From positions 221,467 to 285,466 of the forward strand of contig CBDDLT010000005.1 in assembly GCA_965230755.1 (NCBI GenBank): a DNA stretch of 64,000 nucleotides, given 5' to 3'. The translations under genes and the position numbers were made by a program. Under the pieces are notes generated by a model. The model had not been told where the DNA came from. It did not search any database and worked only from the letters and a program-made list of their open reading frames with translations. Source of the stretch: Saprospiraceae bacterium (GTDB taxonomy: Bacteria; Bacteroidota; Bacteroidia; Chitinophagales; Saprospiraceae). Positions 1-62,900 of this stretch are shown here, in pieces; within the stretch, counting starts at the first letter, position 1; each line of letters starts with the position of its first letter.

Positions 1-1065
1 GTGTCTCCTGCTGAGTATGAGACAATTACTGAAGAAGTAATGACCAAGCCTGAGTCAAAAAGATTGGTTGCTGTTCCTGCAGAATACGAAACGATTACAG
101 AGGAAATTATGGTGAAACCTGAAACAAAGCGATTGGTTTATGTTCCAGCTGAGTTCGAAACGATTACTGAAGAAGTAATGGTTAAGCAAGAATCTAAGCG
201 AGTAATTCCAGTTGCCGCTCAATTCGAAACTGTAACTGAAAACTTTGTTGAAAAGCAAGCTGCTACAAGAATTGAAGTTTTATCACCTCAGTACGAAACA
301 ATTTCTGAAACTATCGAAATCGCTCCTGCTACTACTAAGTGGGTAAAAAGAAAGGCAGACAGAAACTGCTTATCTGCAAATCCAGATGATTGTTTGGTAT
401 GGTGTCTTGTTGAGCAACCAGCTCAGTACAGAACTGTAACTAAGAAAGTGAACATTGGATGTGATGGTTCAGGTGTTGCTAATTCAGGTTGTATTGTTGA
501 AAATGCAATTGCAGAGCAAGTTGGAACAAGAACTTACAAAAAATTAGTTTCTGCTGCTTCTTACACTGAAGAAGTAATTCCTGCTGAGTACAAAACTATT
601 ACTAAGAAAGTAGTTAAGACTCCTGCTTCAATGAGAGAGGAAATCATCCCTGCTGAGTACAAGACTGTTACGAAGAACGTAATCAAATCTCCTGCAAGCT
701 ATACGGAGGAAACAATTCCTGCTGAATATGGCACAATCACAAAGAGAGTATTGAAATCTGCAGCTGCTTACCAAGAGATCGAAGTTCCTGCTGAGTACAA
801 GACTATCACTAAGAGAAGATTGGTCAAAGCTGGAGGATTTACTGAGTGGAGAGAGGTACTTTGTGACACTGAAATCACTAATTATACAGTAAGACAAATT
901 CAAAAAGCATTAATCGACAGAGGATATGATGTTGGACCTGCTGGTACTGACAATATTCTTGGACCTGATACTAGAGCTGCTTTAACTAAGTTCCAAAAAG
1001 ACAATGGTTTACCGGTAGGAAACCTTGATTTTGAAACACTTAAAGCTTTAGGTGTACAGTATTAA
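1..1065 (+). CDS. Tandem-repeat protein with C-terminal peptidoglycan-binding (PG_binding_1-like) domain; 5'-partial
   Basis: ORF runs from the window edge to the TAA at 1063-1065. There are about 8 tandem ~23-aa repeats (PAEYETITEEVMxKPESKRLV, then PAEYKTITKKVVKxPAS). The C-terminus (TVRQIQKALIDRGYDVGPAGTDNILGPDTRAALTKFQKDNGLPVGNLDFETLKALG) matches the PG-binding repeat pattern. Confidence 0.6.
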   Translation: MSPAEYETITEEVMTKPESKRLVAVPAEYETITEEIMVKPETKRLVYVPAEFETITEEVMVKQESKRVIPVAAQFETVTENFVEKQAATRIEVLSPQYETISETIEIAPATTKWVKRKADRNCLSANPDDCLVWCLVEQPAQYRTVTKKVNIGCDGSGVANSGCIVENAIAEQVGTRTYKKLVSAASYTEEVIPAEYKTITKKVVKTPASMREEIIPAEYKTVTKNVIKSPASYTEETIPAEYGTITKRVLKSAAAYQEIEVPAEYKTITKRRLVKAGGFTEWREVLCDTEITNYTVRQIQKALIDRGYDVGPAGTDNILGPDTRAALTKFQKDNGLPVGNLDFETLKALGVQY

Positions 1066-1690: not shown

Positions 1691-1705
1691 GCGGTCCGGA
1701 CGGGA
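1691..1705. repeat. attR-type direct repeat: 15-bp copy of the 3' end of tRNA-Asp (GCGGTCCGGACGGGA), imperfectly extended to 1710
   Basis: Identical 15-mer at 7204-7218, inside the tRNA-Asp 3' end. The next 5 nt match at 3 of 5 positions, giving 18/20 overall. Confidence 0.75.
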
Positions 1706-1844
1706 ATCAATCAATGCAATCACCTTACTTTCTACATAGACAACAATTTCTCATAAATTATCTATAAATGCCTATATAACATCTATTTAACCCAATCAAG
1801 GTGCATTGCAAAAGTGTGCATAGGGTTTCAAATAATGGTTGTTT

Positions 1845-1865
1845 CGTTGGGAAATGGTTGGGAAA
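1845..1865. repeat. 21-bp direct repeat CGTTGGGAAATGGTTGGGAAA (copy 1); candidate integrase arm-type or recombination-enhancer site
   Basis: An identical 21-mer occurs at 7128-7148. Both copies are in the same orientation, each lying 50-140 bp inside one end of the element. The motif is internally tandem (TTGGGAAA tgg TTGGGAAA). Confidence 0.6.
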
Positions 1866-1899
1866 TTGATTATATTTGGAATGTTCAAAAGTATTCTAA

Positions 1900-3267
1900 A
1901 TGGCAACTACTTCTATCCGAGCAAAAGGAAAAGAAAAGAAAACATTCTATCTACGACTGTCAATAGAACGAGGCAGGGTGTATGAAAGAAGCACTCAAAT
2001 AACGATTCCTTCCGAATTTTACAGCACTAAGACTGGATTACCTAAAACTGGGGATGTCAATAGGCAAGTGATTATTGATAAACTCAATAGACTAGAAACT
2101 TTCATAGTCGAATTATACAATAAGGCCGATGACAAGGGTCTGATTGACTCGAAATGGCTAGGGAACAAAATAGCAGAATTTAACGGTAACAAGATAAAAG
2201 GCGAGGATACTTTAAAAGACAAGGTAACTGACTGGATAGATCATATAATTGAGAATGCCGAATACAGAGAGAATGACAAAGGTGGTTATGGGCTAAGTGA
2301 GGACAGGGTAAGGCAGTATCGGAATATCAAAACTCTTGTAAGTGACTTTGAAAAATCAATTGAAGAGATATTGCTAGTATCAAAAGTTGACTCATTGGTC
2401 ATCAAGGCCTTTGAAAAATTTATGAAGGAAAGAAAATATCAGGATCAAACCATTAAGAAAAAGGTAACTGATCTTAAGTCCATATGCAGAGAGGCCAGAA
2501 AAAATGGAGTCGAACTATCAATAGGGTTTGATCAAATCAAAGTGGGATCAGCAAAGACTTATGACGACGATATGGACGTAATTTATCTTAGTATTCCAGA
2601 AATTAATAAAATAAGATCTATTGACTTAGACGACGAACCTCTTATTAATGCCAGAAAATGGTTGTTAGCATTATGTTTTACAGGACAAAGAGGGATTGAC
2701 TTAGTTGGGGGTCGCAAAAATGACAAATTTTACTCATGTCAATTAATTAAAGATAATTTTAAGGTCAGACCTAATGGTAAATTGGCATTATCTATCCGAC
2801 AATCAAAAGGAAACAAACAAGTATTAATACCGATTCTTGGACCAGTCAAAGAAATGTATGAGAAAGGTTTGCCTTATCCTATGACATTACAGAAACTAAG
2901 AGGACACTTCAAGGACTTGGGCAAACTGTCCGGAATAGACACTCCCACAATGGGAGTGAAACAAGAGGTTATCCTAATAGGAAAAGAAAGAACCAGAAGG
3001 GGTATTAAAAAAATTAGACCTAAATATGAATACATGGCCACCCACATTGGTCGTAGATCATTTTGCACCAACTTTTATGGTATTCTATCTACAAAAGATA
3101 TAAAACGAATAACCGGACATTCTAAGGATGTTACCCTTCTAAAATACATAAATGAGAGTACCGATGATCACATCGATAATGCAGAAGAAGCCTACAACAA
3201 AATAATTGGAATGGGTAAGCAATTGGAATCAACCGAATTTTCTAATCATTTAAAAATAGCAAAATAG
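1900..3267 (+). CDS. int: Site-specific tyrosine recombinase/integrase (Bacteroidota phage-integrase family)
   Basis: 455 aa. The C-terminal catalytic region HIGRRSFCTNFY...ITGHSKDVTLLKYI fits the H-x-x-R ... H-x-x-x-x-Y box II with a terminal catalytic Tyr. A Lys-rich N-terminal arm region is present. It sits next to a tRNA-derived att repeat. Confidence 0.85.
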   Translation: MATTSIRAKGKEKKTFYLRLSIERGRVYERSTQITIPSEFYSTKTGLPKTGDVNRQVIIDKLNRLETFIVELYNKADDKGLIDSKWLGNKIAEFNGNKIKGEDTLKDKVTDWIDHIIENAEYRENDKGGYGLSEDRVRQYRNIKTLVSDFEKSIEEILLVSKVDSLVIKAFEKFMKERKYQDQTIKKKVTDLKSICREARKNGVELSIGFDQIKVGSAKTYDDDMDVIYLSIPEINKIRSIDLDDEPLINARKWLLALCFTGQRGIDLVGGRKNDKFYSCQLIKDNFKVRPNGKLALSIRQSKGNKQVLIPILGPVKEMYEKGLPYPMTLQKLRGHFKDLGKLSGIDTPTMGVKQEVILIGKERTRRGIKKIRPKYEYMATHIGRRSFCTNFYGILSTKDIKRITGHSKDVTLLKYINESTDDHIDNAEEAYNKIIGMGKQLESTEFSNHLKIAK

Positions 3268-3273
3268 AAAATT

Positions 3274-3630
3274 ATGCAAGAGATTTACTTTACAAGCCAA
3301 GGCACTTTCGCCCCAATTAGTCAGAAACTATTCATTGACAACGAAACCAAGGCAAATGAACCCTTTTTAATTACTTTGGAACAGGCTGCCCTAATGTTAA
3401 ACTTTGAATCAATTGAAGCCTTTGAAAAGGAACTTTACGAACGATTCATTCTCATGGGAAATAAAGACAATCGAAACAAACCTTTTCGTATCCATTTAGA
3501 TAATGGATTGTTCGCCCTCCAGGTATCCGAGTTTGTCTACCAAGGCAAGTTCAGGCTAAATTACAAGACGTTCATGACGAGTAAGGGCCTAGAATGGATC
3601 AGTGGAGAACTTGAAGTACAATCAAAATAA
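3274..3630 (+). CDS. Hypothetical protein (118 aa), island cargo
   Basis: ORF begins 7 nt after int and is co-directional. No recognisable motif. Confidence 0.45.
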   Translation: MQEIYFTSQGTFAPISQKLFIDNETKANEPFLITLEQAALMLNFESIEAFEKELYERFILMGNKDNRNKPFRIHLDNGLFALQVSEFVYQGKFRLNYKTFMTSKGLEWISGELEVQSK

Positions 3631-3665
3631 AAAGGCAAGACAAGGAATTTACGTCGCCAGCCTAG

Positions 3666-4574
3666 ATGAATGACCTCGATTTCTTTAAGATGGAAGAATT
3701 TAGTTTTAATAAGGCCTTAGAAGAATTTTTGACCAATGGGCAGAATCCAATAAATGAAGGTAATTACGCCAAGGCCTATATTAAAATGAGGTTAAAATTC
3801 TTGGAGTTTGGAAAGTATCAAAGATTTATATGGGATAGCAAAGATGATAACATTACTAAAATGTTATCGAGTATTGTTCAACGCATAAATGACATCAAAG
3901 AAGAAGTCCAAGAAAAGTGGGTTAAAGAACAATTAATCCGCATAGAACAACTTAACGCAATTCATGAACTACTTGCCTTTGAACAAGAATATAGTGATGT
4001 GTTTTTTTCAATTGGCACGAAGTACTCTAACAATAAGACCTATCATTTCTTTCCCGATGTAAGCCACTACACGAGATGGGAACCAGGGTATGAATCTATT
4101 AAAATTGTTCGAATCGGGAATAAAATAATTAGCAGAGACGGAAGAATATCAAGGGCCATCAAATCAAGAAACAAGCAATTGGAAAACGTTGCTCCTATTA
4201 ATTATAAAAAAACCATTGATCAACCTGAAGATCAGTATACACTAGAACATATAATCAGTCATAAAAATGTTACTGGTGTAATAGAAGAAATAAAGAAACT
4301 ATGCCAAGGTAAAAAGGGCAAGGATATAGCAATACTCTTTATTGCCTTGGACGAATTAGGTGTCATCCCCAAAAATATAACGTCAAAGAAGTTTCACGAT
4401 TCTTGTAAAAATTCATTTGATTGGGATATTGGTGTTCTTAGATCAATGACCAAATTCAAGAAAAGTTATAGATATAGTGAAGTTTATGATGAAACCGAGA
4501 TAACACCTGATGGGAAGGAGAAAGACAGAATAGTATCTGCCATATCTGCCATGTCTGCCACTAAAGAAAACTAG
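3666..4574 (+). CDS. Hypothetical protein (302 aa), island cargo
   Basis: Long ORF with ordinary coding composition and no recognisable motif. Confidence 0.5.
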   Translation: MNDLDFFKMEEFSFNKALEEFLTNGQNPINEGNYAKAYIKMRLKFLEFGKYQRFIWDSKDDNITKMLSSIVQRINDIKEEVQEKWVKEQLIRIEQLNAIHELLAFEQEYSDVFFSIGTKYSNNKTYHFFPDVSHYTRWEPGYESIKIVRIGNKIISRDGRISRAIKSRNKQLENVAPINYKKTIDQPEDQYTLEHIISHKNVTGVIEEIKKLCQGKKGKDIAILFIALDELGVIPKNITSKKFHDSCKNSFDWDIGVLRSMTKFKKSYRYSEVYDETEITPDGKEKDRIVSAISAMSATKEN

Positions 4575-4674
4575 TTCAAAGTTCCAATTTATTCCTCGGA
4601 ACTTCTTGGAACCTTTGTTTTGTGGAATTGAGTAGCATCCTCTCTAATTTTACTTTCAAATAAAAATTAAAGAA

Positions 4675-4956
4675 ATGGAAAGTTTACAATTTATTGGTAC
4701 ATCACCAGATGTGATTGTCCGGAAAATTCTAACTGGCGTAGATGAACGTCTAAATGACTTAAAGGATCAATTTCAGCCGAAAGAACCAGAGGAATACTTG
4801 ACTAGGAAGCAAGTATCTGAATTACTGCAAGTAGACCTATCAACTTTGCACAGATGGACTAAATGTGGCAAGTTAATTGCCTATGGCATAGGCAACAGGG
4901 TCTACTACAAGAGGACCGAAGTTGAACAGGCATTATTAACTCAAAATTCGCACTAA
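4675..4956 (+). CDS. Helix-turn-helix DNA-binding protein, excisionase/AlpA-like
   Basis: 93 aa. The motif LTRKQVSELLQVDLSTLHRWTKCGKLIAYGIGNRVYYKRTEVEQAL is typical of the MerR-superfamily HTH_17/AlpA excisionase-type domain found on Bacteroidota mobile elements. Confidence 0.6.
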   Translation: MESLQFIGTSPDVIVRKILTGVDERLNDLKDQFQPKEPEEYLTRKQVSELLQVDLSTLHRWTKCGKLIAYGIGNRVYYKRTEVEQALLTQNSH

Positions 4957-4958
4957 TT

Positions 4959-5306
4959 ATGACAAAAAAAATCCAATATACTTATACGTTGTCAAAAGAG
5001 ACAAAGACAACAAGACACTATTTAATTGACCATTCCGATAACGAGAATCAGGTATTCAGTGATAGGATTAGGATATCCCATAACAGGAAATTCAATAATT
5101 CACCACATGATTATTTTGTTCACGAACGAAACAATCCTAATAGATGGAATAAAACAACCACTACTGGATTAATGAGAACAAATAAACCTAATCAATATGA
5201 GGGTGATATAATAGATTCTCAAAAAAGGAAGCAACATAAGGTGCTGTTCGAATTTATTGGAGATACACTTTTAGTTGACGTTCACTTAAATTATTTCAGA
5301 CTATAA
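4959..5306 (+). CDS. Hypothetical protein (115 aa)
   Basis: Begins 3 nt after the HTH gene and is followed by a strong terminator. No recognisable motif. Confidence 0.4.
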   Translation: MTKKIQYTYTLSKETKTTRHYLIDHSDNENQVFSDRIRISHNRKFNNSPHDYFVHERNNPNRWNKTTTTGLMRTNKPNQYEGDIIDSQKRKQHKVLFEFIGDTLLVDVHLNYFRL

Positions 5307-5310
5307 AATA

Positions 5311-5345
5311 AAAAAGGGTGTACTGATTGGTACGCCCCTTTTTGT
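5311..5345 (+). terminator. Rho-independent terminator
   Basis: GGGUGUAC..GUACGCCC gives an 8-bp stem (one G-U pair), followed by TTTTTG. Confidence 0.5.
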
Positions 5346-5406
5346 TCAATTGTATTCTAAACCTAATTAGAATTACTCAAATATACGCCTTTTAATTAAG
5401 TATCAA

Positions 5407-6714
5407 TTGATAGATTATAAAGTAAACAAAACAGTAGACCAAGAGACCATAAATAAGGTATTAGATTTTTTTAATGATCAATGTATAACTCCTGAATATT
5501 ACGAAGTTCCCTCAACCGCCGATAAGCACCATAAAACTTCGCATGTATATACCTATTTGGACCAAGAGACTGTACTAACAAGATACAGTCATAAAGACTC
5601 GGGAGAATTGTTGCATGAATGCCTCTACTTTAATATAAAACCCCACTATCTCTTTAATAGCAATGCGCATAACGCCAACTATTTTAGTCCAAAAGATTGC
5701 ATAAAAACACTTAAAGACTTTTTTGGCCCATTTGATATTGACTATGAATTACTAGAACCCATTAAAATTGAATACGGCCTAAACTTCTACCAGCCTTATG
5801 AACCGGAGAAGGTCATATCTTTATCACCCTACCAAGGCAAAAACCGTCCTAGGTTTGATCTAGGAGATAACAAAACCGGATATCAGTATCACAAAAAGAC
5901 ACCTGGCAGAATCAAGCATTACAATACTTTTAAGTATTACTGTAAGGGGTTGCACAATGACTACCACCTTTACGAGTATTGTCATCGAAATACTTTGAGA
6001 GCAGAAATAAAATGCTATCAGAAGGAAAGAATCAAGAAGGACGGCATCAATTCACTTGCAGACCTTTTGAATGTAGAGAGTTATATTCCCTTAGTAATGA
6101 ATTTAAGGAATGAGTTTCGCCGATTACTCATTCTAGATAGGATAACCCCAATAGAAGAATTCAATCTCTCTAAAACAGCAAAAAATAGATTCGAAAAGTA
6201 TTTGCATTCAGAAACCTGGGATGACTTTTGTAATGATAGTTACCGGAATAAGTATGCCAATAATTATAAATCATATTTACGACTCTTGGATCGGTTCGAT
6301 GGGAATGTAAAAAACAATCTTACAGGCCACTTTGAAAACCAACTCCAAAAACTAGAAAAGTGTGCAAAATGGACATACGTTAATAGTCCAATATGCACAC
6401 CTACGGAATCAACCAACCAAGGCATTCAAGACTCGGATAATGGTATCTGTTCGGAGAGCATCAAACTGCTCCATTGGGATCACCCTATTCGCAAAAAAAC
6501 AAGAAATGATAAAGATAATCCTAGAAACAATCTAGCCAGTGGAATTAAGGCAAGACAAGAAAGATGTCAAGCAAGTGGTCAGCAATCACTATTTCCATTG
6601 GGTGAGCAAATCAGTAAAACCAAACTAAAACTACTAATGCCTTGGATTGGAACGAAGTATGATCTATTTCCTAGCCTTGGTATTGATAATCCCGATGAGT
6701 TTTTAAGTGAATGA
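5407..6714 (+). CDS. Hypothetical Cys/His-rich protein (435 aa); candidate replication initiator, by position immediately upstream of the iterons
   Basis: Long ORF with Cys/His clusters (CKGLHNDYHLYEYCHRNTLRAEIKCY; CAKWTYVNSPICTPTES...GICSESIKLLHWDH). It ends exactly where the iteron array begins. The function is inferred from position, not sequence. Confidence 0.5.
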   Translation: MIDYKVNKTVDQETINKVLDFFNDQCITPEYYEVPSTADKHHKTSHVYTYLDQETVLTRYSHKDSGELLHECLYFNIKPHYLFNSNAHNANYFSPKDCIKTLKDFFGPFDIDYELLEPIKIEYGLNFYQPYEPEKVISLSPYQGKNRPRFDLGDNKTGYQYHKKTPGRIKHYNTFKYYCKGLHNDYHLYEYCHRNTLRAEIKCYQKERIKKDGINSLADLLNVESYIPLVMNLRNEFRRLLILDRITPIEEFNLSKTAKNRFEKYLHSETWDDFCNDSYRNKYANNYKSYLRLLDRFDGNVKNNLTGHFENQLQKLEKCAKWTYVNSPICTPTESTNQGIQDSDNGICSESIKLLHWDHPIRKKTRNDKDNPRNNLASGIKARQERCQASGQQSLFPLGEQISKTKLKLLMPWIGTKYDLFPSLGIDNPDEFLSE

Positions 6715-6732
6715 AGAATACTTGCACCTCTC

Positions 6733-7079
6733 ATGCGTGCGAAGGTTTTTTACTAGTCCTAAACACGCACGAAGGTTTTTCTTAGGTCTATACGCACGTG
6801 CAAGGTTTTTTAGAAATCATAACGCATGCGGAGGAGATCAAGAGTATTTCGGCACAATAAAAAGTATGGGGCAGTCACTATACACACGCACGAAGATTAT
6901 TCTACGGTCACAATTACAACTCCTAAGAATTCTCTTACTCGTAAAAAGGAATGGGGGGGTCATATACGCACATGAAGATTTTTCTTACATATAAAAGGAG
7001 TGGGCAGCACTATTCCTACGTTGAGTTTATTGAAATCACTCATGCGCATGTAGGAGCAAAGATTTTTTCACGGTCACAT
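6733..7079. repeat. Iteron array of about 7 direct repeats (ACGCAYGnnAAGGTTTTTT and degenerate variants, with a TCTACGGTCACA/TTCACGGTCACA sub-repeat); candidate origin or integrase arm-site cluster
   Basis: Repeat copies start near 6733, 6764, 6792, 6822, 6886, 6966 and 7043. The first four are ~30 bp apart. The track ORFs 6707-6994 and 6951-7154 are simply translations of these repeats (RRFF...ARRFF). Confidence 0.7.
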
Positions 7080-7127
7080 TCATACACTGAGGAGTATTAT
7101 TGTATGAAATATCCCAATATGGCACAT

Positions 7128-7148
7128 CGTTGGGAAATGGTTGGGAAA
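7128..7148. repeat. 21-bp direct repeat CGTTGGGAAATGGTTGGGAAA (copy 2)
   Basis: Exact match to 1845-1865. Confidence 0.6.
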
Positions 7149-7204
7149 ATATAAAATAAAAAATCGCAAGCAATTGACATCCAACTACTTGCGATAATTA
7201 ATTG

Positions 7205-7278
7205 CGGTCCGGACGGGACTCGAACCCGCGACCCCCTGCGTGACAGGCAGGTATTCTAACCAACTGAACTACCGAACC
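7205..7278 (-). tRNA. tRNA-Asp (anticodon GTC)
   Basis: The reverse complement reads GGTTCGGTAGTTCAGTTGGTTAGAATACCTGCCTGTCACGCAGGGGGTCGCGGGTTCGAGTCCCGTCCGGACCG. It has a 7-bp acceptor stem, a GTC anticodon in the CCTGCCTGTCACGCAGG loop/stem and a GGTTCGAGTCC T-arm. CCA is not encoded. Confidence 0.9.
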
Positions 7279-8465: not shown

Positions 8466-10376
8466 ATGGCCAAGAACGTAAAGAACAGTTCGAAAAAAAG
8501 CAAAAAAAAAGTTAGACCTAAAAAATGGATATGGAAAAAACATATCCCAGCACTTAGTATTTTATTTCTACTCGGTTTTGCCCTTTACTTTCAGAGTATC
8601 TACTTCGAGTATGTCTTGGATGACAAAATCGTTCTTACAGAGAATGACTACGTAAAGGAGAAGTGGGCTGGAATTCCAAAGATTTTGAGTTCGGATAGCT
8701 TTGAAGGGTATTTCAAAGAACAAAAAGATCTGCTTCAAGGAGCACGTTATCGCCCTTTTTCAATAGCAGCTTTTGCCGTAGAATATGGTATAGTTGGAGA
8801 AGCAAATCCTATGGTCAGTCATCTGATCAATATCGTTCTTTACGGTTTCTTGGCTTGTCTGATTTACTTCTTAATGTTTAGATTGAACATTTCATGGCCC
8901 CATAAATCATGGTATTTTTCATTGCCTTTTATAGTCGCATTATTATATGTATTGCATCCTCTTCACATTGAAGCGGTTGCCAACGTCAAGGGTCGCGATG
9001 AATTACTGACTTTTATTTTCAGTATCATCAGTTTTCTGTGTATTTACCGATACTCCTATCAAAGGCAATTGAGCTTTTTAATATTGGGCTCCGTTTCGTT
9101 TTTTGCAGCTTTAATGTTCAAGGAAAATGCGCTTCCATTTCTCGCCGTTATTCCCGCTTCCTTATGGGTATTCCGCAAGAAGGACCTCAATTTTCTAGTG
9201 TTGCCGTTTGTAGCTTTGCTCATTCCTACTATTATTTATTTTATCATTCGACTACAAGTGATCGGTTACTTGATCGATCCTCCCGGAAAAAAAATTACGG
9301 ATTTATTGAATAATCCTTTTGCGGAGATGAATTCCGGTGAAAGACTAGCGACAATCTTTTACACCTTGCTCGAGTATTTAAAACTTCAGGTGTTTCCACA
9401 CCCGCTAACCCACGACTATTATCCTTACCATATCCCAAAAATGACTTGGTCTAACGCGGTAGTTTATCTCTCGTTCTTGATCAATGCGATTCTATTCGCT
9501 TTGAGTTTATGGGGTATCTTCAAAAGGAAAGCATGGGGCTTTTTTCTCTTTTTCTATTTTGCCAGTGTTTCAATTGTCAGTAATATTTTGATTTCCGTAG
9601 GGGTATTCATGAATGAACGATTTGTATTTATCGCATCGCTTGGATTTTGCTTTTTAATACCTTGGGTGGTTCAGAAGGGAGCTGAGCGATTTTCATTCGA
9701 TAGCAAAATTATTCTAGGGAGTTTTGTTGCCGGATTATCCATACTCTTTGTTCTAAAGGATTTGGATAGAATCCCTGATTGGAAAAACCCTTTTACCTTG
9801 AATGAATCCGCTATTAAGGTTTCGAAAAATAGTGCTCGAGCCAATTGCTTCTACGGCGTTGAATTATACAAAAAGGCTCAGAATGAGACCGATAATTCTG
9901 TAAAACAAGATTTACTTAAGGAAGCAGCAGGATATGTTGATCGCGCTATTGAGATATATCCAGAATATGGTAGTGCCTTGAAAATGAAAGCTGGAATTTT
10001 GGGTGCGCAATACACTGGAATACAAGATCGGGAAAAAACCTTGGATCAGTTTTTTGAAATCATGCAGGACAAGCATATTCCTTATGTTCATCAATTCATC
10101 ATGGACTACTTATCGAAGAACCCTGATAATATAGACGCTATACTACAATTCTATCATCGACTGGGATTTGAGACCTATTATAGTAAACTGAATAATTCAA
10201 AATTAGCACTGGTCTCGTTGGAAAACGCTTTGCGCTTAGACCCAGAATCTCCTTTCATTCTAAGAGACTTAGCGATAATATACCATAGAGTAGGTAACTC
10301 GAAATCCAAGGCTATGGCTACTAAAGCATTGGCCTATTACCCGAATGATCAAGCTTTAATAAAAATATTGCAGTGA
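8466..10376 (+). CDS. Polytopic membrane protein with C-terminal TPR repeats (TMTC/DUF1736-like glycosyltransferase-type architecture)
   Basis: 636 aa. Lys-rich N-terminus, then ~10 hydrophobic helices, then a soluble C-terminal half with TPR-like repeats (AIEIYPEYGSALKMKAG..., ALRLDPESPFILRDLAIIYHRVGN). Confidence 0.65.
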   Translation: MAKNVKNSSKKSKKKVRPKKWIWKKHIPALSILFLLGFALYFQSIYFEYVLDDKIVLTENDYVKEKWAGIPKILSSDSFEGYFKEQKDLLQGARYRPFSIAAFAVEYGIVGEANPMVSHLINIVLYGFLACLIYFLMFRLNISWPHKSWYFSLPFIVALLYVLHPLHIEAVANVKGRDELLTFIFSIISFLCIYRYSYQRQLSFLILGSVSFFAALMFKENALPFLAVIPASLWVFRKKDLNFLVLPFVALLIPTIIYFIIRLQVIGYLIDPPGKKITDLLNNPFAEMNSGERLATIFYTLLEYLKLQVFPHPLTHDYYPYHIPKMTWSNAVVYLSFLINAILFALSLWGIFKRKAWGFFLFFYFASVSIVSNILISVGVFMNERFVFIASLGFCFLIPWVVQKGAERFSFDSKIILGSFVAGLSILFVLKDLDRIPDWKNPFTLNESAIKVSKNSARANCFYGVELYKKAQNETDNSVKQDLLKEAAGYVDRAIEIYPEYGSALKMKAGILGAQYTGIQDREKTLDQFFEIMQDKHIPYVHQFIMDYLSKNPDNIDAILQFYHRLGFETYYSKLNNSKLALVSLENALRLDPESPFILRDLAIIYHRVGNSKSKAMATKALAYYPNDQALIKILQ

Positions 10377-10534: not shown

Positions 10535-12013
10535 ATGTTGGTTAGGACTTATTTATTGGCTATTCTAGTGTTGTTTGCTTTTCAGCTTAATGGGCAAACT
10601 ATCATCCATACTGAAAAAGGAGGGTACTTAAGTGATCTTCGTTCTAATGAACAGCATTCTGACAATGGACGTCAAGAACTAAAGGATTTTGTAATATCCT
10701 TGGGTTATGAACAAGAGCTAAGTGAAGAAGATGTATCCACTGAAAAGTCTTCCAATCTTTATGGAATGCCCGTGAAAAAAAGCTACGAAAGCTTTGTCCA
10801 AAATGATCATTACTACTACGCAATATCTCAGTTTTTTGACCAGAATACCTCGAATGGTTATTTAGAAGATTATAGTTGTCGTTATAGAACATATGATACT
10901 CATAGCGGAACAGATTATTTTGCTTTTCCTTTCTACTGGTATCAGTATGAGAATGAGCTTTTTGAGGTGGTAGCTGCCCAAGATGGTTTTGTAAAAGGTG
11001 TTTCTGACACGGTAGAGGATGCCTGCAATATTAATTCAGAATTTGGTAATTGGGTTTTAATAGATCATGGTGGTTTTCAGACACTTTATGCGCATTTACA
11101 AAAGGGTTCTATAACTGTGGAATATGATCAATTTGTTTCAAAAGAGGAAATCATAGGATTGGTTGGATATTCTGGAAATAGTACAAAACCCCATCTTCAT
11201 TTTGAGACATATTCACGTTTCTTTAATGATTCTATTCACGATCCTTATTACCCAGGTTCGGAAGATTGTGAAGCGCCTTATAGTTTATATCGAATGGAAA
11301 GAAATGGCTATGATGAATACGGTAGGACGGCCATTCTAAGTATTACTTCTCATAATCAGGAGCCCAGATGGAAAACGGAATGCACAGATCCCACAGAAGA
11401 ACCATATTTCGAGAACAATTTTAAAGTAGGCGAAACAGCACATTTTATTACTGCTGTTAGAGATATGTACGCGGAACAAACATTGGTGACCGAATTGATA
11501 AAACCAGATGGAAATTTTGCGGCGCAATGGAGACATGATTTAGCAGAGATAACAGATAATCCTAATGCTGAACTTGAAGTTGCAGTTTACGCAAGAAATG
11601 AATTTCTAATTCCAGCAGATGCTCCTATGGGAAATTGGACTCTACAATCCTATTTGTTGGATGCCAATGGATCACCTATTATCCCTCAGCCGGAAGGAAT
11701 ATTAAGTCATACTATTATTGTTGACGGCACCTCAGATAATAGCGAGTTCTTATCTGAAAACTTTAAGGTTTATCCGCAACCTGCCAACGAAAAGTTGTAT
11801 GTTGAACTATCACAACAACTGATCTCAGAGGGCAAATCCTTTACTTTAGAGTTGACAGACATTACAGGAAAAACATGTTTAGAGATTGATTCTAAACATC
11901 TTATGTCCAGGTCATTTATCAATATATCTACTCTTCAATCCGGTCTTTATTTTATGAGATATAAAGATCAGTACGGTTATTCTACCGGGTGTAAAAAAAT
12001 AATAATTCAATAA
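10535..12013 (+). CDS. Secreted M23-family metallopeptidase with T9SS type-A C-terminal sorting domain
   Basis: Signal peptide. M23/LytM motifs (HSGTDY...; LYAHLQKGSITVEYDQFVSKEEIIGLVGYSGNSTKPHLHFETY). The C-terminus KVYPQPANEKLYVEL...GLYFMRYKDQYGYSTGCKKIIIQ is typical of the Por_Secre_tail domain. Confidence 0.8.
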   Translation: MLVRTYLLAILVLFAFQLNGQTIIHTEKGGYLSDLRSNEQHSDNGRQELKDFVISLGYEQELSEEDVSTEKSSNLYGMPVKKSYESFVQNDHYYYAISQFFDQNTSNGYLEDYSCRYRTYDTHSGTDYFAFPFYWYQYENELFEVVAAQDGFVKGVSDTVEDACNINSEFGNWVLIDHGGFQTLYAHLQKGSITVEYDQFVSKEEIIGLVGYSGNSTKPHLHFETYSRFFNDSIHDPYYPGSEDCEAPYSLYRMERNGYDEYGRTAILSITSHNQEPRWKTECTDPTEEPYFENNFKVGETAHFITAVRDMYAEQTLVTELIKPDGNFAAQWRHDLAEITDNPNAELEVAVYARNEFLIPADAPMGNWTLQSYLLDANGSPIIPQPEGILSHTIIVDGTSDNSEFLSENFKVYPQPANEKLYVELSQQLISEGKSFTLELTDITGKTCLEIDSKHLMSRSFINISTLQSGLYFMRYKDQYGYSTGCKKIIIQ

Positions 12014-14431: not shown

Positions 14432-17400
14432 ATGAAAAAAAGTGCAATTATTTTAATGAGACCTACTTTTAGTGTACTTCTTCTTCTTTGGGCCGGATTA
14501 GGAATCCACCTGGAAGCCATTGGCCCTGCGAAAGACCTAATCTATACCGCTATAGAAGATTACCATAGTTTGGATACACTCCCACCTATGTGGGAAGCTA
14601 GAGACGAATATGATCTGGATCAGAATCCTTTTGACCTTAACGATCCCGCAATTGTAAAGGAAGAAGTCGAATTTGATACAGAGAATAACAATTACATCCT
14701 ATCTAAAAAGATAGGCGAAGAATTTTACACAGCTCCAAGTCATATGAGTTTTCAAGAATATCTTGATTATAAACAAAAGATGGCTGACAAGGAGTTCATG
14801 CAAAAAATGAACGGGTTAAATTCAGATGGAGGATTTCTGGATTTTGCTGCCGGAAAAGCAGATGGTATTAATCCTGTAGATAATCTAAATATTCAAGAGG
14901 ATCTAGTTGGAGGAATGTTTGGCGGAGCTCAAATCAGTATCAAACCTCAAGGATATGTTGACTTTACTTTTGGGGGGAGAGGAAATTTTTATGATAACCC
15001 AGCTAACCCACCAGAATTTAACAGACAAGGATTTTTACCCTATTTTCAACCCAATATCAATCTTAGAGTCGAAGGAGGTATTGGAGATAAATTTAATCTA
15101 GGTTGGGATTATAATACTCAGTCTACTTTTGACTTCGATAACAGAATCAAATTAGCCTACGATAGTGAAGAGTGGAGTGAAGATGAAATTGTTAAAAAAA
15201 TTGAGGCGGGCGACGTCTCGCTTCCACTCAACAGTCAGTTGATCAATGGAAGTCAACGACTGTTCGGAGTGAAAACCGAACTCCAATTTGGAAAACTCAC
15301 CCTAACAGGCCTAATATCCCAACAGAAATCCCAGAAAAAAGAAATTGTCATTGAAAACGGAGGTAGAATAAGAGAGTTCTTTAAGTATATCAATGAGTAC
15401 GACGAGAATAGACATTTCTTCTTAACTCATTACAACCGCGAAACCTACGAAAGATCCTTGGCAAACCTCCCACAAATCAACACACTGTTTAAAATTCGAA
15501 AAATAGAACTTTGGACTACTAACAAAAACCAGCAGGAAACTGATGTTCTAAGTGAAATTATTGCCGTTACAGACCTTGGTGAACCGGAAAGAATAAGCAT
15601 GTCGGACCGTCAATATTTTCCAACGACACCACGACATCCGGATATCTATGATGGTAAACCTCTTCCGGGATTTGAGTTGGCTTCACAAATAGGTGCTAAC
15701 GATTTATTCTCTACGCTTAGAAATGATCCGGCAATGAGAAGCACCGGAACGGCAAAAACACGTCTTGAGAACTTCTATAACATGGTTAATGGTCAGGATT
15801 TCGAAAGACTTCGTGCTAGAAAATTACAAAGAGATAGAGATTATTTTGTCCATGAAGATCTTGGTTTTGTCTCTTTAAACAGGCAAGTAGAGACGGATGA
15901 AGTACTTGGTGTTGCATTGGAGTATGAGTTCAACGGTAAAGTATATCAAATAGGTGAGTTCAATGATGACGCAGATAGTGTATTAATTGTTAAACTACTT
16001 AAATCCCAAACCAATGATGTAAGTAATGTATCCTGGGATTTGATGATGAAAAACATCTATTCCGTTGGAGCATATCAGGTAGACCGTGAGGATTTCCAAT
16101 TGGATATATTTTACGATGATCCGGGAAAAGGTGAAAAGAGATTCTTGCCAGCGCCCGAATTAGATGGAAGACCATTATTACAAATATTTAATCTAGATAA
16201 TTTAAATCCCGTCGGTGATCCGCAGCCCGATGGCCGATTTGATTTTGTGCCTGATCTGACAATTTTACCACGAACTGGAAAGATCATCTTCCCAGTCCTA
16301 GAACCTTTCGGTTCTTCTCTAAGAAATTACCTGGCCAGTCAGGGCGTTCCAGAGGAAGAAGATATATATAGTTTTCCAGAGTTGTACAGTAACACGATCA
16401 TCAATACCCTTCAAAGTCCAGAAACCAATCGGTTCGTTATTCGAGGGAAATACAAATCTGATGTTACAGCGGACATCTCATTGGGAGCTTTCAATATCCC
16501 CAGAGGATCTGTGGTTGTAACAGCTGGTGGTCGAAGGTTACAAGAAGGACTGGATTATGAAATAGACTATAATATTGGTCGTATTAAAATATTGAATGAG
16601 AGTTATCTCGCATCCGGACCTGTTAAGATTAGCTTTGAAGATAATGGCGCTCTAGGGTTCCAAGTGAAGACCATGATGGGCTTAAGAGCTGATTATCGAG
16701 TGAATAAGCATATCAATGTTGGTGGTACCTTTATGCATCTCTATGAAAGACCCTTTACCCCAAAAGTTAATATCGGAGATGATCCTATTAACAACAGGGT
16801 TTACGGACTCGATTTTAGTTATGAGAAAAGTGCTCCTTGGTTAACAAGGTTAGTAGACAAAATTCCCGGAATTGATACTAAGGAAGAATCAAAAATTAAG
16901 TTTTATGCTGAAACCGCATTTCTAAAACCAGGACACGCCCGAGCAATACGTCAAGGAGATGAAGAAGACGGCACCGTATATTTAGACGATTTTGAAGGTA
17001 GCTCTAATGGAGTTCCTGTCGAATCTTTCCATGGGAATTGGACATTAGCCAGTATTCCAAGTGCTTCAAGATTCGACAACGTAGAATTTCTACCTGAACA
17101 TCAGTTGAATAATGACCTAAATATTAATGTAAACCGAGCTCTCATGAGTTGGTATAGAATTTTGGATACCGAGGTAGGTGACAATATCAATAATTCACAC
17201 TATTCACGTGTAATTCAGGCAGGTGAGATCTTTCCTCAGCGGCAATTGAATATTCAGCAGAGTATTACTCGATTTCTGACTTTTGATGTTTCCTATTTCC
17301 CAAACGAAAGAGGACCTTACAATTTTGATCGTCCAGGAGGAACAGCTTATAGTGCTGGTATCAATGCTGATGGTGAACTCCTAGACCCCCGCAAAAGATG

Positions 17401-20400
17401 GGCTGGAATTATGACCAATAATACCACTCCGGATTTTGAAAGAGCAAATTATGAAACCCTTGAGTTTTGGGTAATGAGCCCCTATTTGGAGGATCCTCAA
17501 TCTGATAATACCGGCTATCTGGTATTCAACTTGGGTAATATAAGTGAAGATGTTCTCAAAGACTCTGAGAAGTTTGCGGAGCATGCATTACCTACTGATC
17601 CTAATAATCGAGGCTTAAATGTTGACACTACGAATCTTTCAATTGTATCTACCATTGATCCCGCTATCAATGCATTTGAAAATGATCAGGAGTCTAGAAA
17701 TTTGCAAGATGTAGGTTATGATGGAATGGATAATGATCAAGAAAGACTGATTTATCAAGATTACATTAACGAGGTACTCCCATCCCTCAATCCCGGTGCA
17801 GCAAATGCTCTTCGAGAAGATCCAAGCAATGATGACTTTGTTTCGATAGGAGATGATCGAAATGGCAATGGTGTCATCAACAGATATAAGAGATTTTCTA
17901 TGCCTCAAGGGGACTCACAAATCAATACAGGCCAATTTGGAAATGTCAATCAATTCAAGAATTTCCCGGACCAAGAGGATTTAGATCAAGATGGATCTTT
18001 GGATGAGATAGAGCGATATTTCGAATATCGCATTCCGATAGAACCTGATGGAAATGGAGGTATTATGTTAAATGATTATATAATTTCTTCTAGGACTGTA
18101 AGTAATACAACGGTTAATGGTGTTCCGGCGCAATGGTTTCGGGTAAAAATTCCATTGGCTGATACTTCAGCTTCATCCAAAGTAGGGAATATTGCGGATT
18201 TTAGAAACATGCAATTTCTTAGAATGTATATGCATGGGTTCGAAAACCAAATAACTTTCCGTTTTGCAGAGATGGAATATGGACGTAACCTTTGGAGAAG
18301 ATATCTGGGTAATTTAAAGCAAGGAGTTGTTTTCCCTACTCCCGGAGATGAAACCGAGTTCAATATTTCCGCTATTAATGTTGAAGAAAACTCCGATGAA
18401 ACACCTTTTGGATATGATATTCCTATTGGAATAATACGAGAACAGATACAATCCTTTAATCAGAATCTTCAACAGAATGAACAGTCTCTAAATCTTGATA
18501 TATGTAATTTGAAACAAGCTGATGCCCGAGGAATTATCAAAGAATTATTTCTTGATTTAAGAAGATATAAAACACTAAGAATGTTTTCTCATTTGGAAAA
18601 TTCAGATTTCTCTATTGATCCGAATGATGGAGATCTAAGTTTGTTCATTCGATTGGGAAGCGATTATCAGAACAATTATTATGAATATGAAATTCCTTTG
18701 ACCTATTCAAGAGACAATTCACTTCCACGAGGTAGTAGAGCATATAAAGAAGAATTATGGCGTATAGAAAATGAACTGGAACTGAAGCTTCAAGACTTAA
18801 TAGGACTTAAGCGAGAGAGAAACAGAAATACAACGAGAATTGATTCATTATATGCACAACCGGACCCTTTAGATCCTTCTCGCACTCTGAAAATCAAAGG
18901 TAATCCAAATATGGGTTATGTTAAGGGTATCATGATTGGAGTTAGAAATAATTCTGACAGAGATCAATGTTTCGAACTTTGGGTTAATGAATTGCGTGTC
19001 ACAGGATTGGATGAACGAGGAGGTATGGCCGCTCTGGCTCAAGTCGAAGCGCAATTGGCTGATTTTGGCAATCTTTCTCTTGCTGGGCATTATTCTACCA
19101 TAGGATATGGAGATATCGATCAAAAAGTTGGAGATAGAAGCCTCGAAGATGTCAGACAACTAGATGCCTCTATCAATCTTGAGCTAGGTAAATTCTTTAA
19201 GGAAGAATCTGGAATTAAGATTCCATTCTATGCTCAATACAATGAGGTAAAAAGTACTCCAGAATTTGACCCCTATGATCTCGATATCAAGCTTCAAGAT
19301 AAACTGGCTGACGCCGAAGATGCTGAGGAACGGAAAATTATAGAAGATCAGGCCATTGAAAAGACGACCATTAAAGGTTATAATTTCACGAATGTTCGGA
19401 AGGAAAGAACAAATGGAAAGACTCCGATGCCTTGGGATGTAGAAAACCTTACTGCATCCTATGCCTATAATGAGATAGATAGGACAACTCCAATTATTGA
19501 ATTGGATAATGAAAAGAACTATACGGGAAGCTTGGGATATGATTATTCTATGCGTCCATTATACATTTATCCATTCAAAAAACTGATCAAGAAAGGCAAG
19601 TACTTGAAGATCATAAAGGATATCAATCTCAATCCTATTCCGAATGTATACAGTTTTAATACTGTAGTAGATAGAAAGATTTCTGAAGCGAGATATCGTT
19701 TTGCTGAACCTGCATTCAGTACATGGTATACTAAGCGGTTTACCTGGGATCGAAATTACGGTTTGAATTGGGACATTACACAGTCCTTGAAATTCAAGTA
19801 TAATTCTACAGCAATGGCCGTTATTGATGAGCCACCTGGTAAGATTGACACTGACGAGAAGCGGGATAGTATTCGAACCAATATTCGAGATCTGGGAAGG
19901 TTGAAGAATTACAACCATAATATATCCCTGAACTACACTTTGCCGATTAATAAGATCCCCATTTTGGATTGGGTTAAGGCCAAGGCTCAATATGGTGCTG
20001 ATTACAACTGGTCGGTTGCAGCTCTTAATATGGACTCTCTTGGTAATATCATTAGCAATAGCCAAAGAATCCAATTGGGTGGAGATCTCAATTTCCAACG
20101 ACTGTATTCCAAGTCCAAATACTTGGCGAAAATTGATCGTGGAAACAGATCTAGAAGTCGAAGGACGCCTAGTGTAAGCAATAATAAAGAGGTAACCACT
20201 AAGATCAAGAAAGGATCGTCGGCCAAAGGCAATGATGTGGCAACCTGGGAGAAAATCTTAATTCGACCCTTGATGACTTTGAGGCAAGGTAGATTGAATT
20301 ATGTAGAGACCAAAGGAACAACGATTCCTGGATTTACTCCGAGAGCCAAACTACTTGGGCAAAATGATAATTGGTCCGCTCCAGGATGGAAGTTCGTCGC

Positions 20401-28734: not shown

Positions 28735-29319
28735 ATGTTTTTAGAACCTCATTTTAAAGCTCAGCGTAGTGGCTGGATTGAGGTCATTTGTGGATCGATG
28801 TTCTCCGGTAAAACAGAGGAGTTAATTCGACGTTTGAAGCGCGCCGGATATGCCAATCAACGTGTGGTTACCTTCAAGCCGGTAATTGACAGGAGATATG
28901 ATGATGAAAAGGTGGTATCCCACGATAAAAACAAGATTTCTTCCTATCCGGTGGAGCACAGTAGCTATATACTCGAACTGTGCGATGAATACGATGTAAT
29001 AGGAGTAGATGAGGCCCAATTTTTTGATATGAAACTCATTGATGTCGCTCAAGAAATTGCACTCCGAGGAAAAAGAATAATCTTAGCTGGCCTGGACATG
29101 GACTATCGAGGTAATCCTTTCGGCCCTATTCCCGGACTTTTATCCGTTGCAGAGTACATAACAAAGGTACATGCCATTTGTCCCCACTGCGGTAATCTAG
29201 CGACTCATTCCTATCGTAAAACCAGCGATGATGCGACCGTACTTGTGGGGTCCGATGAATACGAACCCCGATGTCGCGTTTGCTTTAACATGGGGAATAT
29301 TATTGACTTTACTCCTTGA
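28735..29319 (+). CDS. tdk: Thymidine kinase
   Basis: GWIEVICGSMFSGKTEELIRR (P-loop), VIGVDEAQFF, and a C-terminal zinc ribbon CPHCG...CRVCF. Confidence 0.9.
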   Translation: MFLEPHFKAQRSGWIEVICGSMFSGKTEELIRRLKRAGYANQRVVTFKPVIDRRYDDEKVVSHDKNKISSYPVEHSSYILELCDEYDVIGVDEAQFFDMKLIDVAQEIALRGKRIILAGLDMDYRGNPFGPIPGLLSVAEYITKVHAICPHCGNLATHSYRKTSDDATVLVGSDEYEPRCRVCFNMGNIIDFTP

Positions 29320-62702: not shown

Positions 62703-62900
62703 AATGTCTTGGAATTTATAAATACTATAGATGTATAAAGCAAATGCAGCCTTAAAACGCTGCATAAAATTTATAACGAACTCAATATTAATAATTTTTA
62801 GTGGTAATTTATTTTTAATATGAATAATATTTTATAATTTTCGTTCCCCTATGCAGCTTTTTCCTTGTGCTTGGGTTTCTTAATCTAAAAGGCGATAATA

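Follow-up and report, generated by a model that had tools for sequence, protein, structure and literature searches.

We identified a small integrative element in a 64,000-nt stretch of a Saprospiraceae bacterium genome (contig CBDDLT010000005.1; hereafter the window). The element spans window positions 1691-7218 and is very probably an integrative element with a rolling-circle-type replication protein (Rep). There is about an even chance that it is, more fully, an apparently intact small integrative rolling-circle element that spreads by hitchhiking and belongs to a Bacteroidota family. The initial annotation of this DNA had proposed a site-specific integrative element at tRNA-Asp, and this was borne out by a 15-nt exact repeat, an intact tyrosine integrase and an excisionase-type helix-turn-helix (HTH) protein. 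The features of the element, by window position, were as follows.

1691-7218: whole element, ~5.5 kb, six plus-strand genes between tRNA-Asp 3'-end repeats
1691-1705: core of the left attachment site (attL), a 15-nt copy of the tRNA-Asp 3' end, GCGGTCCGGACGGGA; exact direct repeat of 7204-7218
1844-1865, plus strand: predicted left arm-type site, two 11-bp units TCGTTGGGAAA TGGTTGGGAAA; exact 22-nt repeat of 7127-7148
1900-3267, plus strand: tyrosine integrase, 455 aa (Phage_int_SAM_5, 2.2e-8; phrog_1 integrase, 1.1e-14)
3274-3630, plus strand: orf118, KilAC (phage antirepressor C-terminal) domain (Pfam ANT/KilAC, E 7.5e-6)
3666-4574, plus strand: orf302, DUF6043-like C-terminal region (DUF6043, 4.9e-11, residues 166-272)
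4675-4956, plus strand: orf93, excisionase-family HTH_17 protein, core gene (HTH_17, 7.9e-11)
4959-5306, plus strand: orf115, small conserved core protein, starting 2 nt past the orf93 stop
5316-5337, plus strand: GC-rich hairpin GGGTGTAC-TGATTG-GTACGCCC followed by T's, between orf115 and rep, read from the sequence
5407-6714, plus strand: orf435, predicted divergent Rep_trans-fold nicking initiator (rolling-circle Rep and/or relaxase)
6580-6594, plus strand: QQSLF clamp-binding-like motif, orf435 residues 392-396
6730-7078, plus strand: repeat array, three tight ~30-bp units at 6730-6819, then units 82-121 bp apart
7127-7148, plus strand: predicted right arm-type site, the identical two 11-bp units, 55 nt inside the right attachment site (attR)
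7155-7203: element-borne hairpin immediately downstream of the rebuilt tRNA 3' end, inverted repeat with 22-nt arms, 77% complementary
7204-7218: attR core, the 3'-terminal 15 nt of tRNA-Asp
7204-7278, minus strand: tRNA-Asp(GTC) (ARAGORN; Rfam tRNA, 67.5 bits)

The six open reading frames (ORFs) are closely spaced, all on the plus strand, and are followed by ~490 non-coding bases before the tRNA. Extending the 15-nt core repeat gave 18/20 identity, as read from the sequence. Within these cores, a repeat search revealed a 22-nt direct repeat, TCGTTGGGAAATGGTTGGGAAA, which is exact at both element ends and was absent from the initial annotation. At the left end, it is found 153 nt inside attL, with the int start codon ~35 nt further downstream. 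The 19-nt core of this repeat had only two occurrences in the window, and 0/100 shuffles gave two matches. Among related loci (numbered L001 onwards), seven elements at other tRNAs (L002, L004, L022, L024, L030, L033 and L034) were bounded by tRNA-end repeats of 13-17 nt. A paired-unit repeat of 20-25 nt, built from two 10-11-bp units, was present in five independent elements (the window element, L002, L004, L022 and L034), 131-156 nt inside attL and 50-57 nt inside attR, and the sequence of the unit differed element by element (e.g. GGTTGGAATTT, TGTTTGGAAGA, ACGTACCAAAT and TCGTGCAATAG). Constant geometry with co-varying sequence is expected of arm-type sites read by each element's own integrase/excisionase, and the paired 11-bp repeats are probably arm-type recombination sites. 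The integrase gene occupies the element end distal to the tRNA, as first described, and its catalytic set (R264, K303, H382, R385, H407 and Y416) was invariant in 17 full-length family integrases, the window's included. The integration module, with core and predicted arm sites, thus appears intact. The hairpin at 7155-7203 is likely a replacement terminator for tRNA-Asp; in L002, a hairpin at the equivalent position resembles the chromosomal hairpin at attL.

To characterize the large protein beside the array, we analyzed the sequence and predicted structure of orf435. The initial annotation had called it rep-like, which the Rep_trans fold recognized by Foldseek supports. It had also called the protein Cys/His-rich and described an iteron origin, which suggests a theta-type Rep; the protein contains only 11 Cys (2.5%) and 16 His (3.7%), and the Rep found is predicted to be of the nicking, rolling-circle type. 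A word-indexed search with orf435 returned one relative only, and exhaustive HMMER searching of 1.84 billion representative proteins returned 219 cluster representatives at E ≤ 1e-3 and 103 at E ≤ 1e-10. The Rep_trans family PF02486 was matched by 5 of the 99 family members scanned singly against Pfam (best 9e-5) and was the sole Pfam family matched by more than two of them; orf435 scored below its gathering threshold. Sequence and profile searches of PDB chains with orf435 gave nothing relevant. An AlphaFold2 model built from the deep alignment (pLDDT 82.5, pTM 0.72) was used, and one built from a two-sequence alignment (pLDDT 39.5) was not. With this model, the best Foldseek matches in the PDB were 4cwe and 4cwc (E 5e-5, probability 1.00), and the model has the crescent-shaped, TBP-like catalytic fold of Rep_trans proteins.

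The conserved core of orf435 covers residues ~70-320. In a 106-sequence alignment, H80, N89, E122, Y178, K180 and R198 were invariant, and D3, K176 and E200 were nearly so. In RepDE, the active-site Y191 is flanked by R189 and K193, with R212-x-E214 on the next strand, and the metal ligands are D46 (D9 in RepSTK1), D142 and E214 (PMC4797284). The orf435 family shows D3…E122…K176-x-Y178-x-K180…R198-x-E200, the RepDE residue order with similar spacing, and its K176-x-Y178-x-K180 fits the basic-x-Y-x-K pattern and lies on a predicted strand (173-179). Y178 is therefore the putative catalytic tyrosine, and D3, E122 and E200 are putative metal ligands. Fold and motifs together mark orf435 as a predicted, deeply diverged nicking enzyme of the Rep_trans fold. 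At their C-termini, most family Reps have (A/S)(H/K)(N/Q)IRN, followed 10-20 residues on by QxxLF, with variants such as QLSLF, QLNIF, QPLLF, QIQLF and others. The strict QxxLF motif occurred in 13/71 tails and in 2/580 internal windows. The beta-clamp-binding consensus is QL[SD]LF, and the tail sequence suggests recruitment of the beta sliding clamp. The window Rep and a few others (P0048, P0121) carry ~40 more residues with a W-x-G-T-K-Y/W-D motif.

Among viral structures (BFVD), the best Foldseek match of the orf435 model was an Inoviridae G2P replication protein (E 6e-8). The G2P proteins, as the best viral matches, raise the reading of a remnant or unusual form of a temperate phage with single-stranded DNA, filamentous (inovirus-like) or other, that combines a Rep_trans initiator with a tRNA-targeting integrase. 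A size of 5.5 kb and tRNA integration also resemble many inovirus prophages. Neither the element nor any relative, however, encodes a Zot-like morphogenesis ATPase, coat protein or adsorption protein; the minimal elements hold only four or five genes, and the small terminase (TerS) and tape-measure genes of relatives belong to tailed double-stranded DNA phages. Given that no morphogenesis gene was present across the family, we rejected the inovirus-prophage reading, and the wider single-stranded DNA phage explanation is very improbable.

The repeat array follows rep directly. Its unit approximates ACGCAYG..GAAGrTTTTTCwyrGGTCAC, and the spaced units share a longer form ending …TTTTTCwyrGGTCAC(A). 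A regex scan for the motif [AG]CG[CT][AG][CT][AG], up to 12 nt, AAG[AG]TT[AT]TT gave six matches, all on the plus strand within 6735-7067 and nowhere else in the 64 kb. With one or two degenerate units the count rises to ~7, in agreement with the ~7 repeats reported initially. Units of the window type were found in L027 at 6560-6760 (…GAAGATTTTTTCACGGTCACA…, …AAGGTTTTTCTTGGGTCA… and ACGCACGCACG, 130-390 nt from the tRNA), an element at tRNA-Leu(caa) whose Rep is ~31% identical to orf435. L003 carries units similar to the window's within the last few hundred bases before its tRNA, and L005 carries ACGTGCGTA-type repeats right after rep. The unit was not evident in L002, L022 or L024. The array thus appears to be a conserved, non-universal companion of the orf435 Rep family. 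Same-orientation repeats beside the initiator gene, conserved with the initiator family, are what defines an iteron-type origin, and the array is likely an origin or Rep-binding region, a putative role drawn from position and conservation. Folded as single-stranded DNA, the repeat region gave a z-score of -2.66 and no convincing nick hairpin. ORFs that overlap the arrays (window 6707-6994 and 6951-7154, plus strand, and L027 6497-6727; 95, 67 and 76 aa) are very likely not genes; their translations are alike (…HARRFF…) because the DNA units repeat.

The remaining genes of the element fall into core and accessory classes. The HTH protein orf93 was 48-55% identical to the gene in the same position in L002-L005. 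It matched excisionase/regulator phrog_66 (1.5e-8) and reached 28.2 bits with TIGR01764, below the cut-off of 28.8. The initial description as an excisionase/AlpA-type HTH holds for the excisionase family; orf93 is not a member of Pfam Phage_AlpA. The small protein orf115, one of four ORFs originally listed as family-less orphans, had no Pfam, PHROGs, NCBIfam or PADLOC match and keeps that status; the other three did not, with KilAC found in orf118, DUF6043 in orf302 and the Rep_trans fold in orf435. A gene at the position of orf115 is kept between the HTH gene and rep in most loci, with relatives' proteins 23-47% identical, and its 124 homologues, Elizabethkingia and Chryseobacterium proteins among them, are every one named hypothetical. 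The hairpin in the gap between the small gene and rep, together with a stretch TTTGTTCAA(T/A)TGT(-/T)ATTCTA, is conserved between the window (5316-5400) and L001 (397-470), though the flanking proteins are only ~45% identical. This hairpin and stretch could form a terminator plus a rep promoter or operator.

The orf118 KilAC match scored 26.7 bits against the Pfam cut-off of 25.3 (phrog_5689, 2.4e-4), and no homologue of orf118 was found in the other 45 loci. For orf302, a word-indexed homologue search returned only itself; a homologue is present in L003 (6.5e-14), also in the slot between int and the HTH gene. We regard orf118 and orf302 as lineage-specific accessory genes. In most elements, the slot between int and HTH_17 holds a protein of 250-320 aa, and these proteins form at least two weakly related groups, one comprising orf302 and the L003 protein and another comprising L004/L005 and others. 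The slot positions and other loci concerned were the following.

Window 3666-4574; L003 708-1637; L004 2083-3033; L005 521-1261; also L027, L012, L013, L030, L015 and L021: slot between int and HTH_17

Among the slot proteins, orf302 alone reaches a Pfam family (DUF6043). The slot protein may be a fifth, fast-evolving core gene. Across all six element proteins, no PHROGs structural match, no PADLOC defence match and no relaxase of a known MOB type (Pfam/PHROGs/NCBIfam/PADLOC scans) was obtained. The initial annotation was right in listing no relaxase and no structural genes; its suggestion that the orphans serve defence, interference or capsid redirection gained no support, since no such gene was recognized and the PADLOC check was without a match.

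To place the element among relatives, we collected related loci from context look-ups and collection scans and annotated them by script. The search for int/orf435 pairs at other tRNA genes, proposed in the initial annotation, gave ~40 loci at eight tRNA types (Asp, Cys, Leu(taa and caa), Ala, Arg, Phe, Asn and Gln). The gene order was Int, variable slot, HTH_17, small protein, Rep, optional cargo and a minus-strand tRNA. Element size, where both ends were present, ranged from 4.4 to 10.2 kb; the smallest, L022 (4.4 kb) and L024 (4.7 kb), each have the four core genes, to which L022 adds TerS. The named hosts are all Flavobacteriales (Epilithonimonas hispanica, Elizabethkingia anophelis and Chryseobacterium). 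In L040 (1-9902), two Int-HTH-small-Rep units stand in tandem before one tRNA-Asn, and the left edge is the right end of a further copy (positions 1-97 repeat 9731-9827), which suggests repeated integration at one site and provides indirect evidence of activity within the family. Cargo differed between elements. L002 encodes HigB/Xre-like toxin-antitoxin proteins and a Fic protein (from translations), L003 a PIN-domain protein and L007 likewise a Fic protein; among the other loci, there are genes for secreted or repeat proteins and for a large protein of 1,028 aa. A small protein encoded after rep, with the N-terminal sequence GGRxKGTPNKTT, was seen in L005 (3479-3808), L006, L025 and L031 (3597-3860) and matched PHROGs families of unknown function (~3e-7). 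All database names of family proteins were 'hypothetical protein', and a limited literature search found no description of the element family and no paper mentioning DUF6043; the family is apparently undescribed.

The family data also bear on whether the locus is a passive island, either an integrated rolling-circle plasmid or a fixed, decaying remnant, with no dedicated transfer route and possibly inactive. The window copy has no helper, packaging or mobilization gene, its G+C content equals that of the flanks, and neither an empty site in metagenome contigs nor a circular form among related contigs was found, all as a passive island would predict. The six genes on one strand are nevertheless intact, with all integrase catalytic and Rep active-site residues present, and the 15-nt cores and 22-nt arm sites are exact, which is unexpected in an old remnant. 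Insertion at eight or more tRNA types in many environments, with tandem copies, requires recent mobility and a means of transfer, and the Rep family occurred on 0 of 72,556 plasmids. The passive-island explanation is accordingly quite unlikely, and an inert window copy is slightly less probable still.

Two lineages of relatives carry phage packaging genes next to the same core. In L022, a Terminase_2 small terminase gene (10859-11395; Pfam 7.1e-21, phrog_51 6.4e-26) lies between rep and tRNA-Arg(acg), and its homologues include TerS genes of Polaribacter phages, ~33% identical. With four core genes plus TerS, L022 is possibly the most compact TerS-bearing satellite candidate among the loci here. 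A second type of gene is found in L008/L009, a 9.7-kb element at tRNA-Ala.

L008 4272-9575, with tRNA-Ala at L009 8071-8145: position of the L008/L009 relative with TerS-like and tape-measure genes

This element encodes a 210-aa TerS-like protein (phrog_5193, 1.7e-46; TerS phrog_57, 7.6e-5), and L010 carries a gene of the same type. The database homologues of the L008-L010 protein are confined to phages of Flavobacterium and Cellulophaga and are encoded by the first gene of those phage genomes. L008 also encodes a 653-aa tape-measure homologue (8e-48); a satellite with its own tape-measure protein would be unusual. No large terminase, portal or capsid gene was present in the TerS-bearing relatives. 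To carry TerS but no other head-module gene is a typical trait of satellites of the phage-inducible chromosomal island (PICI) type.

Based on these findings, we propose the following course of events for the element. The tyrosine integrase would recombine the 15-nt core formed by the tRNA-Asp 3' end, an activity we infer from the anatomy, probably guided by the paired 11-bp arm-type sites ~150 bp inside attL and ~55 bp inside attR. For orf93, the HTH_17 protein, a role as excisionase or activator is probable, and excision would be performed by Int with orf93. The excised circle would then be nicked by orf435 through Y178, probably in or near the repeat array, which would serve as the origin. 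Rolling-circle replication would next run on host helicase and polymerase, and the C-terminal QxxLF of orf435 may recruit the beta sliding clamp. Because the element is without transfer genes, it must hitchhike. The most likely route is that of a phage satellite, in which rolling-circle concatemers would be packaged in helper-phage heads, as for PICMI and VEIME elements. This route is suggested by relatives with the same core, some of which have TerS and tape-measure genes akin to genes of Flavobacteriia phages, and satellite status for the window element is thus argued from its relatives only.

Transfer through phage particles is a serious prospect that falls somewhat short of even, and hitchhiking on phage is more likely than hitchhiking by conjugation. 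An integrase, an AlpA/Xis-type protein and a replication module of its own, without capsid, tail or lysis genes, are the marks of a satellite and all are found in the window element; a packaging-redirecting gene (TerS or Ppi/Cpm-like), a further mark, is not. A pac or cos site can also redirect helper packaging, and a pac site is not recognizable by sequence alone. The satellite likeness first noted by the initial annotation therefore persists through the TerS and tape-measure genes of same-core relatives and fails at the packaging gene of the window element itself. In its most specific form, the window element would be a minimal, TerS-less member of an unrecognized Flavobacteriia phage-satellite family, the first for Bacteroidota, which we put forward tentatively. 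The engine of such a family would be a diverged Rep_trans protein with a clamp-binding tail, not a primase/helicase, and concatemers from the array origin would be packaged by helper siphophages. Its lineages would vary in packaging interference, from none through TerS to TerS plus a tape-measure protein.

Several results weigh against the proposed course of events. The window element has no TerS, packaging or capsid-redirecting gene and no recognized interference or defence gene, and recognizable TerS occurred in only 2 of ~25 distinct lineages. The Rep family was found in none of 2.9 million IMG/VR viral contigs (two scans with a few peptide patterns), in none of 50,697 INPHARED phage records and on none of the 72,556 plasmids mentioned above. 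For orf435, no Pfam match was obtained at E ≤ 1 and none in PHROGs, NCBIfam or PADLOC, and its active-site equivalences with RepDE derive from pattern and spacing, not from residue-level superposition. The pT181 Reps recognize inverted repeats, whereas orf435 adjoins a direct-repeat array; the L027 array adjoins attR, not rep, and an array close to attR in several relatives could have a role in recombination or regulation. The initial annotation had proposed to check related strains for presence or absence of the element at tRNA-Asp; a pattern search of metagenome contigs for the empty site, predicted as …CCCTTTTTTAGA-GCGGTCCGGACGGGA-CTCGAACCCGC…, gave no match. No contig among the related loci showed the terminal overlap of a circular form.

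Some of these results would equally suit an integrative mobilizable element (IME), whose Rep_trans-fold protein would work chiefly as a MobT-like relaxase, nicking an origin of transfer (oriT) in the repeat region. The single strand would be exported through a type IV secretion system supplied by a Bacteroidota conjugative element in the same cell, and rolling-circle replication would only maintain the excised form. In Tn916, ICEBs1, ICESt3 and many streptococcal IMEs, the MobT relaxases belong to Rep_trans and also act as initiators of rolling-circle replication (PMC5704250), and orf435 has this fold. An Int, an Xis-like protein and one nicking enzyme, together with the size, fit small IMEs; most family members have no phage-type gene, and none of the viral collections searched contained the Rep family. 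Against this, the ~40 loci had no gene for a coupling protein or a relaxosome accessory factor and no match to a known MOB family, and no conjugative gene was found among the ten large window ORFs tested. The known Bacteroidetes IMEs all use canonical relaxases, and the cited Rep_trans/MobT cases come from Firmicutes. The TerS and tape-measure genes of relatives would make no sense for conjugation, and the clamp-binding-like tail indicates replication rather than transfer. The IME explanation is thus rather unlikely.

The surroundings of the element were those of an ordinary Bacteroidota chromosome.

14432-21706, 10535-12013, 29309-31030, 58296-62765 and 34468-36762: ORFs in the remaining window, ordinary Bacteroidota chromosome

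SprA, Por_Secre_tail and CHU_C domains mark the host as having a type IX secretion system. Outside the element, the window encodes the SprA translocon of this system (6.3e-146), three proteins that bear its C-terminal sorting domains, and a helicase of the UvrD/PcrA type (34468-36762). Among the ten large window ORFs tested, no prophage or conjugation gene was found, and no helper is visible within the 64 kb. At 1-1065 (plus strand), a protein running off the window start has many ~19-residue repeats (…PAEYETITEE/KKV.K…) and a PG_binding_1 C-terminal end (4.3e-13); it is chromosomal flank, unrelated to the element.

Small hitchhiking elements are thought to form much of the unexplained 'genomic island' content of bacteria, and to our knowledge almost none have been defined in Bacteroidota. 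The locus described here gives a compact anatomy for such a family, comprising a core site, paired arm sites at fixed distance, four core genes and a candidate origin. Because the family Rep is predicted to be a Rep_trans protein that sequence models miss, ~220 'hypothetical protein' clusters from environmental and clinical Flavobacteriales (Elizabethkingia, Chryseobacterium) could be re-annotated as members of the Rep_trans superfamily. The link between core and packaging genes in relatives makes the choice between satellite and mobilizable element testable in culturable hosts with known phages (Flavobacterium, Cellulophaga and Polaribacter). The four-gene integrating, replicating core could also serve as a chassis for Bacteroidota genetic tools.

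We then compared the element with known systems. Within the same phylum, Tn4555, NBU1 and NBU2 are likewise small and integrated, and pair a tyrosine integrase with one DNA-processing protein; they use MobP or MobV relaxases and are mobilized by conjugative transposons, whereas no such relaxase is present in the window element. Tn5520 is grouped with the Bacteroides mobilizable transposons and the NBU elements. The marine 'Charybdis' elements (bioRxiv 10.1101/2025.08.03.668216) were considered and set aside as unrelated and archaea-associated. By structure, the pT181-family RepC/RepD/RepDE and the Geobacillus RepSTK1 (PDB 4cwc, 4cwe and 4cij; PMC4797284) are 8-14% identical to orf435, which differs in having ~110 extra C-terminal residues (~326-435), the QxxLF tail and, in relatives, the IRN motif. 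The pT181 Reps are plasmid-borne and unlinked to an integrase, whereas the orf435 element carries one. The closest systems by enzyme are streptococcal IMEs with Rep_trans/MobT, such as IME_Sga2069_rpmE and IMESag-rpsI (PMC5704250), which are small and combine a tyrosine integrase with a Rep_trans protein acting as initiator, relaxase or both. They occur in Firmicutes, the listed examples lie in ribosomal-protein genes, their Rep_trans is recognized by Pfam and many have a coupling protein; the family here is from Bacteroidota, its orf435 is missed by Pfam and it has no coupling protein.

To turn to phage satellites, Flavobacteria are one of the groups in which marine VEIMEs have been found integrated, and the concatemers of these elements are compatible with rolling-circle replication (PMC9618062). 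Like the family here, PICI and VEIME elements combine genes for an integrase and an AlpA/Xis-type protein with a replication module and accessory genes that vary, and TerS is present in some of them, as in L022 and L008-L010. Their replication genes are primase/helicases or plasmid-type initiators, and we found no report of a Rep_trans-fold core for them; the window element differs from the TerS-bearing ones in having no TerS. The PICMI of Vibrionaceae, at ~6 kb, combines an integrase with an HTH protein of the AlpA/excisionase type and a single replication protein, is without capsid-remodelling or packaging-redirecting genes, and replicates to concatemers, consistent with a rolling circle, that fill helper capsids (PMC10803314). 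It integrates by fis, encodes a primase and belongs to Gammaproteobacteria, whereas the window element uses a tRNA, a predicted Rep_trans nicking protein and a host in Bacteroidota; helper dependence of PICMI is experimental, and the window element is known from sequence alone. In its very small size, its combination of int, HTH and one replication gene, and its lack of packaging genes, PICMI is the system closest in working to the window element.

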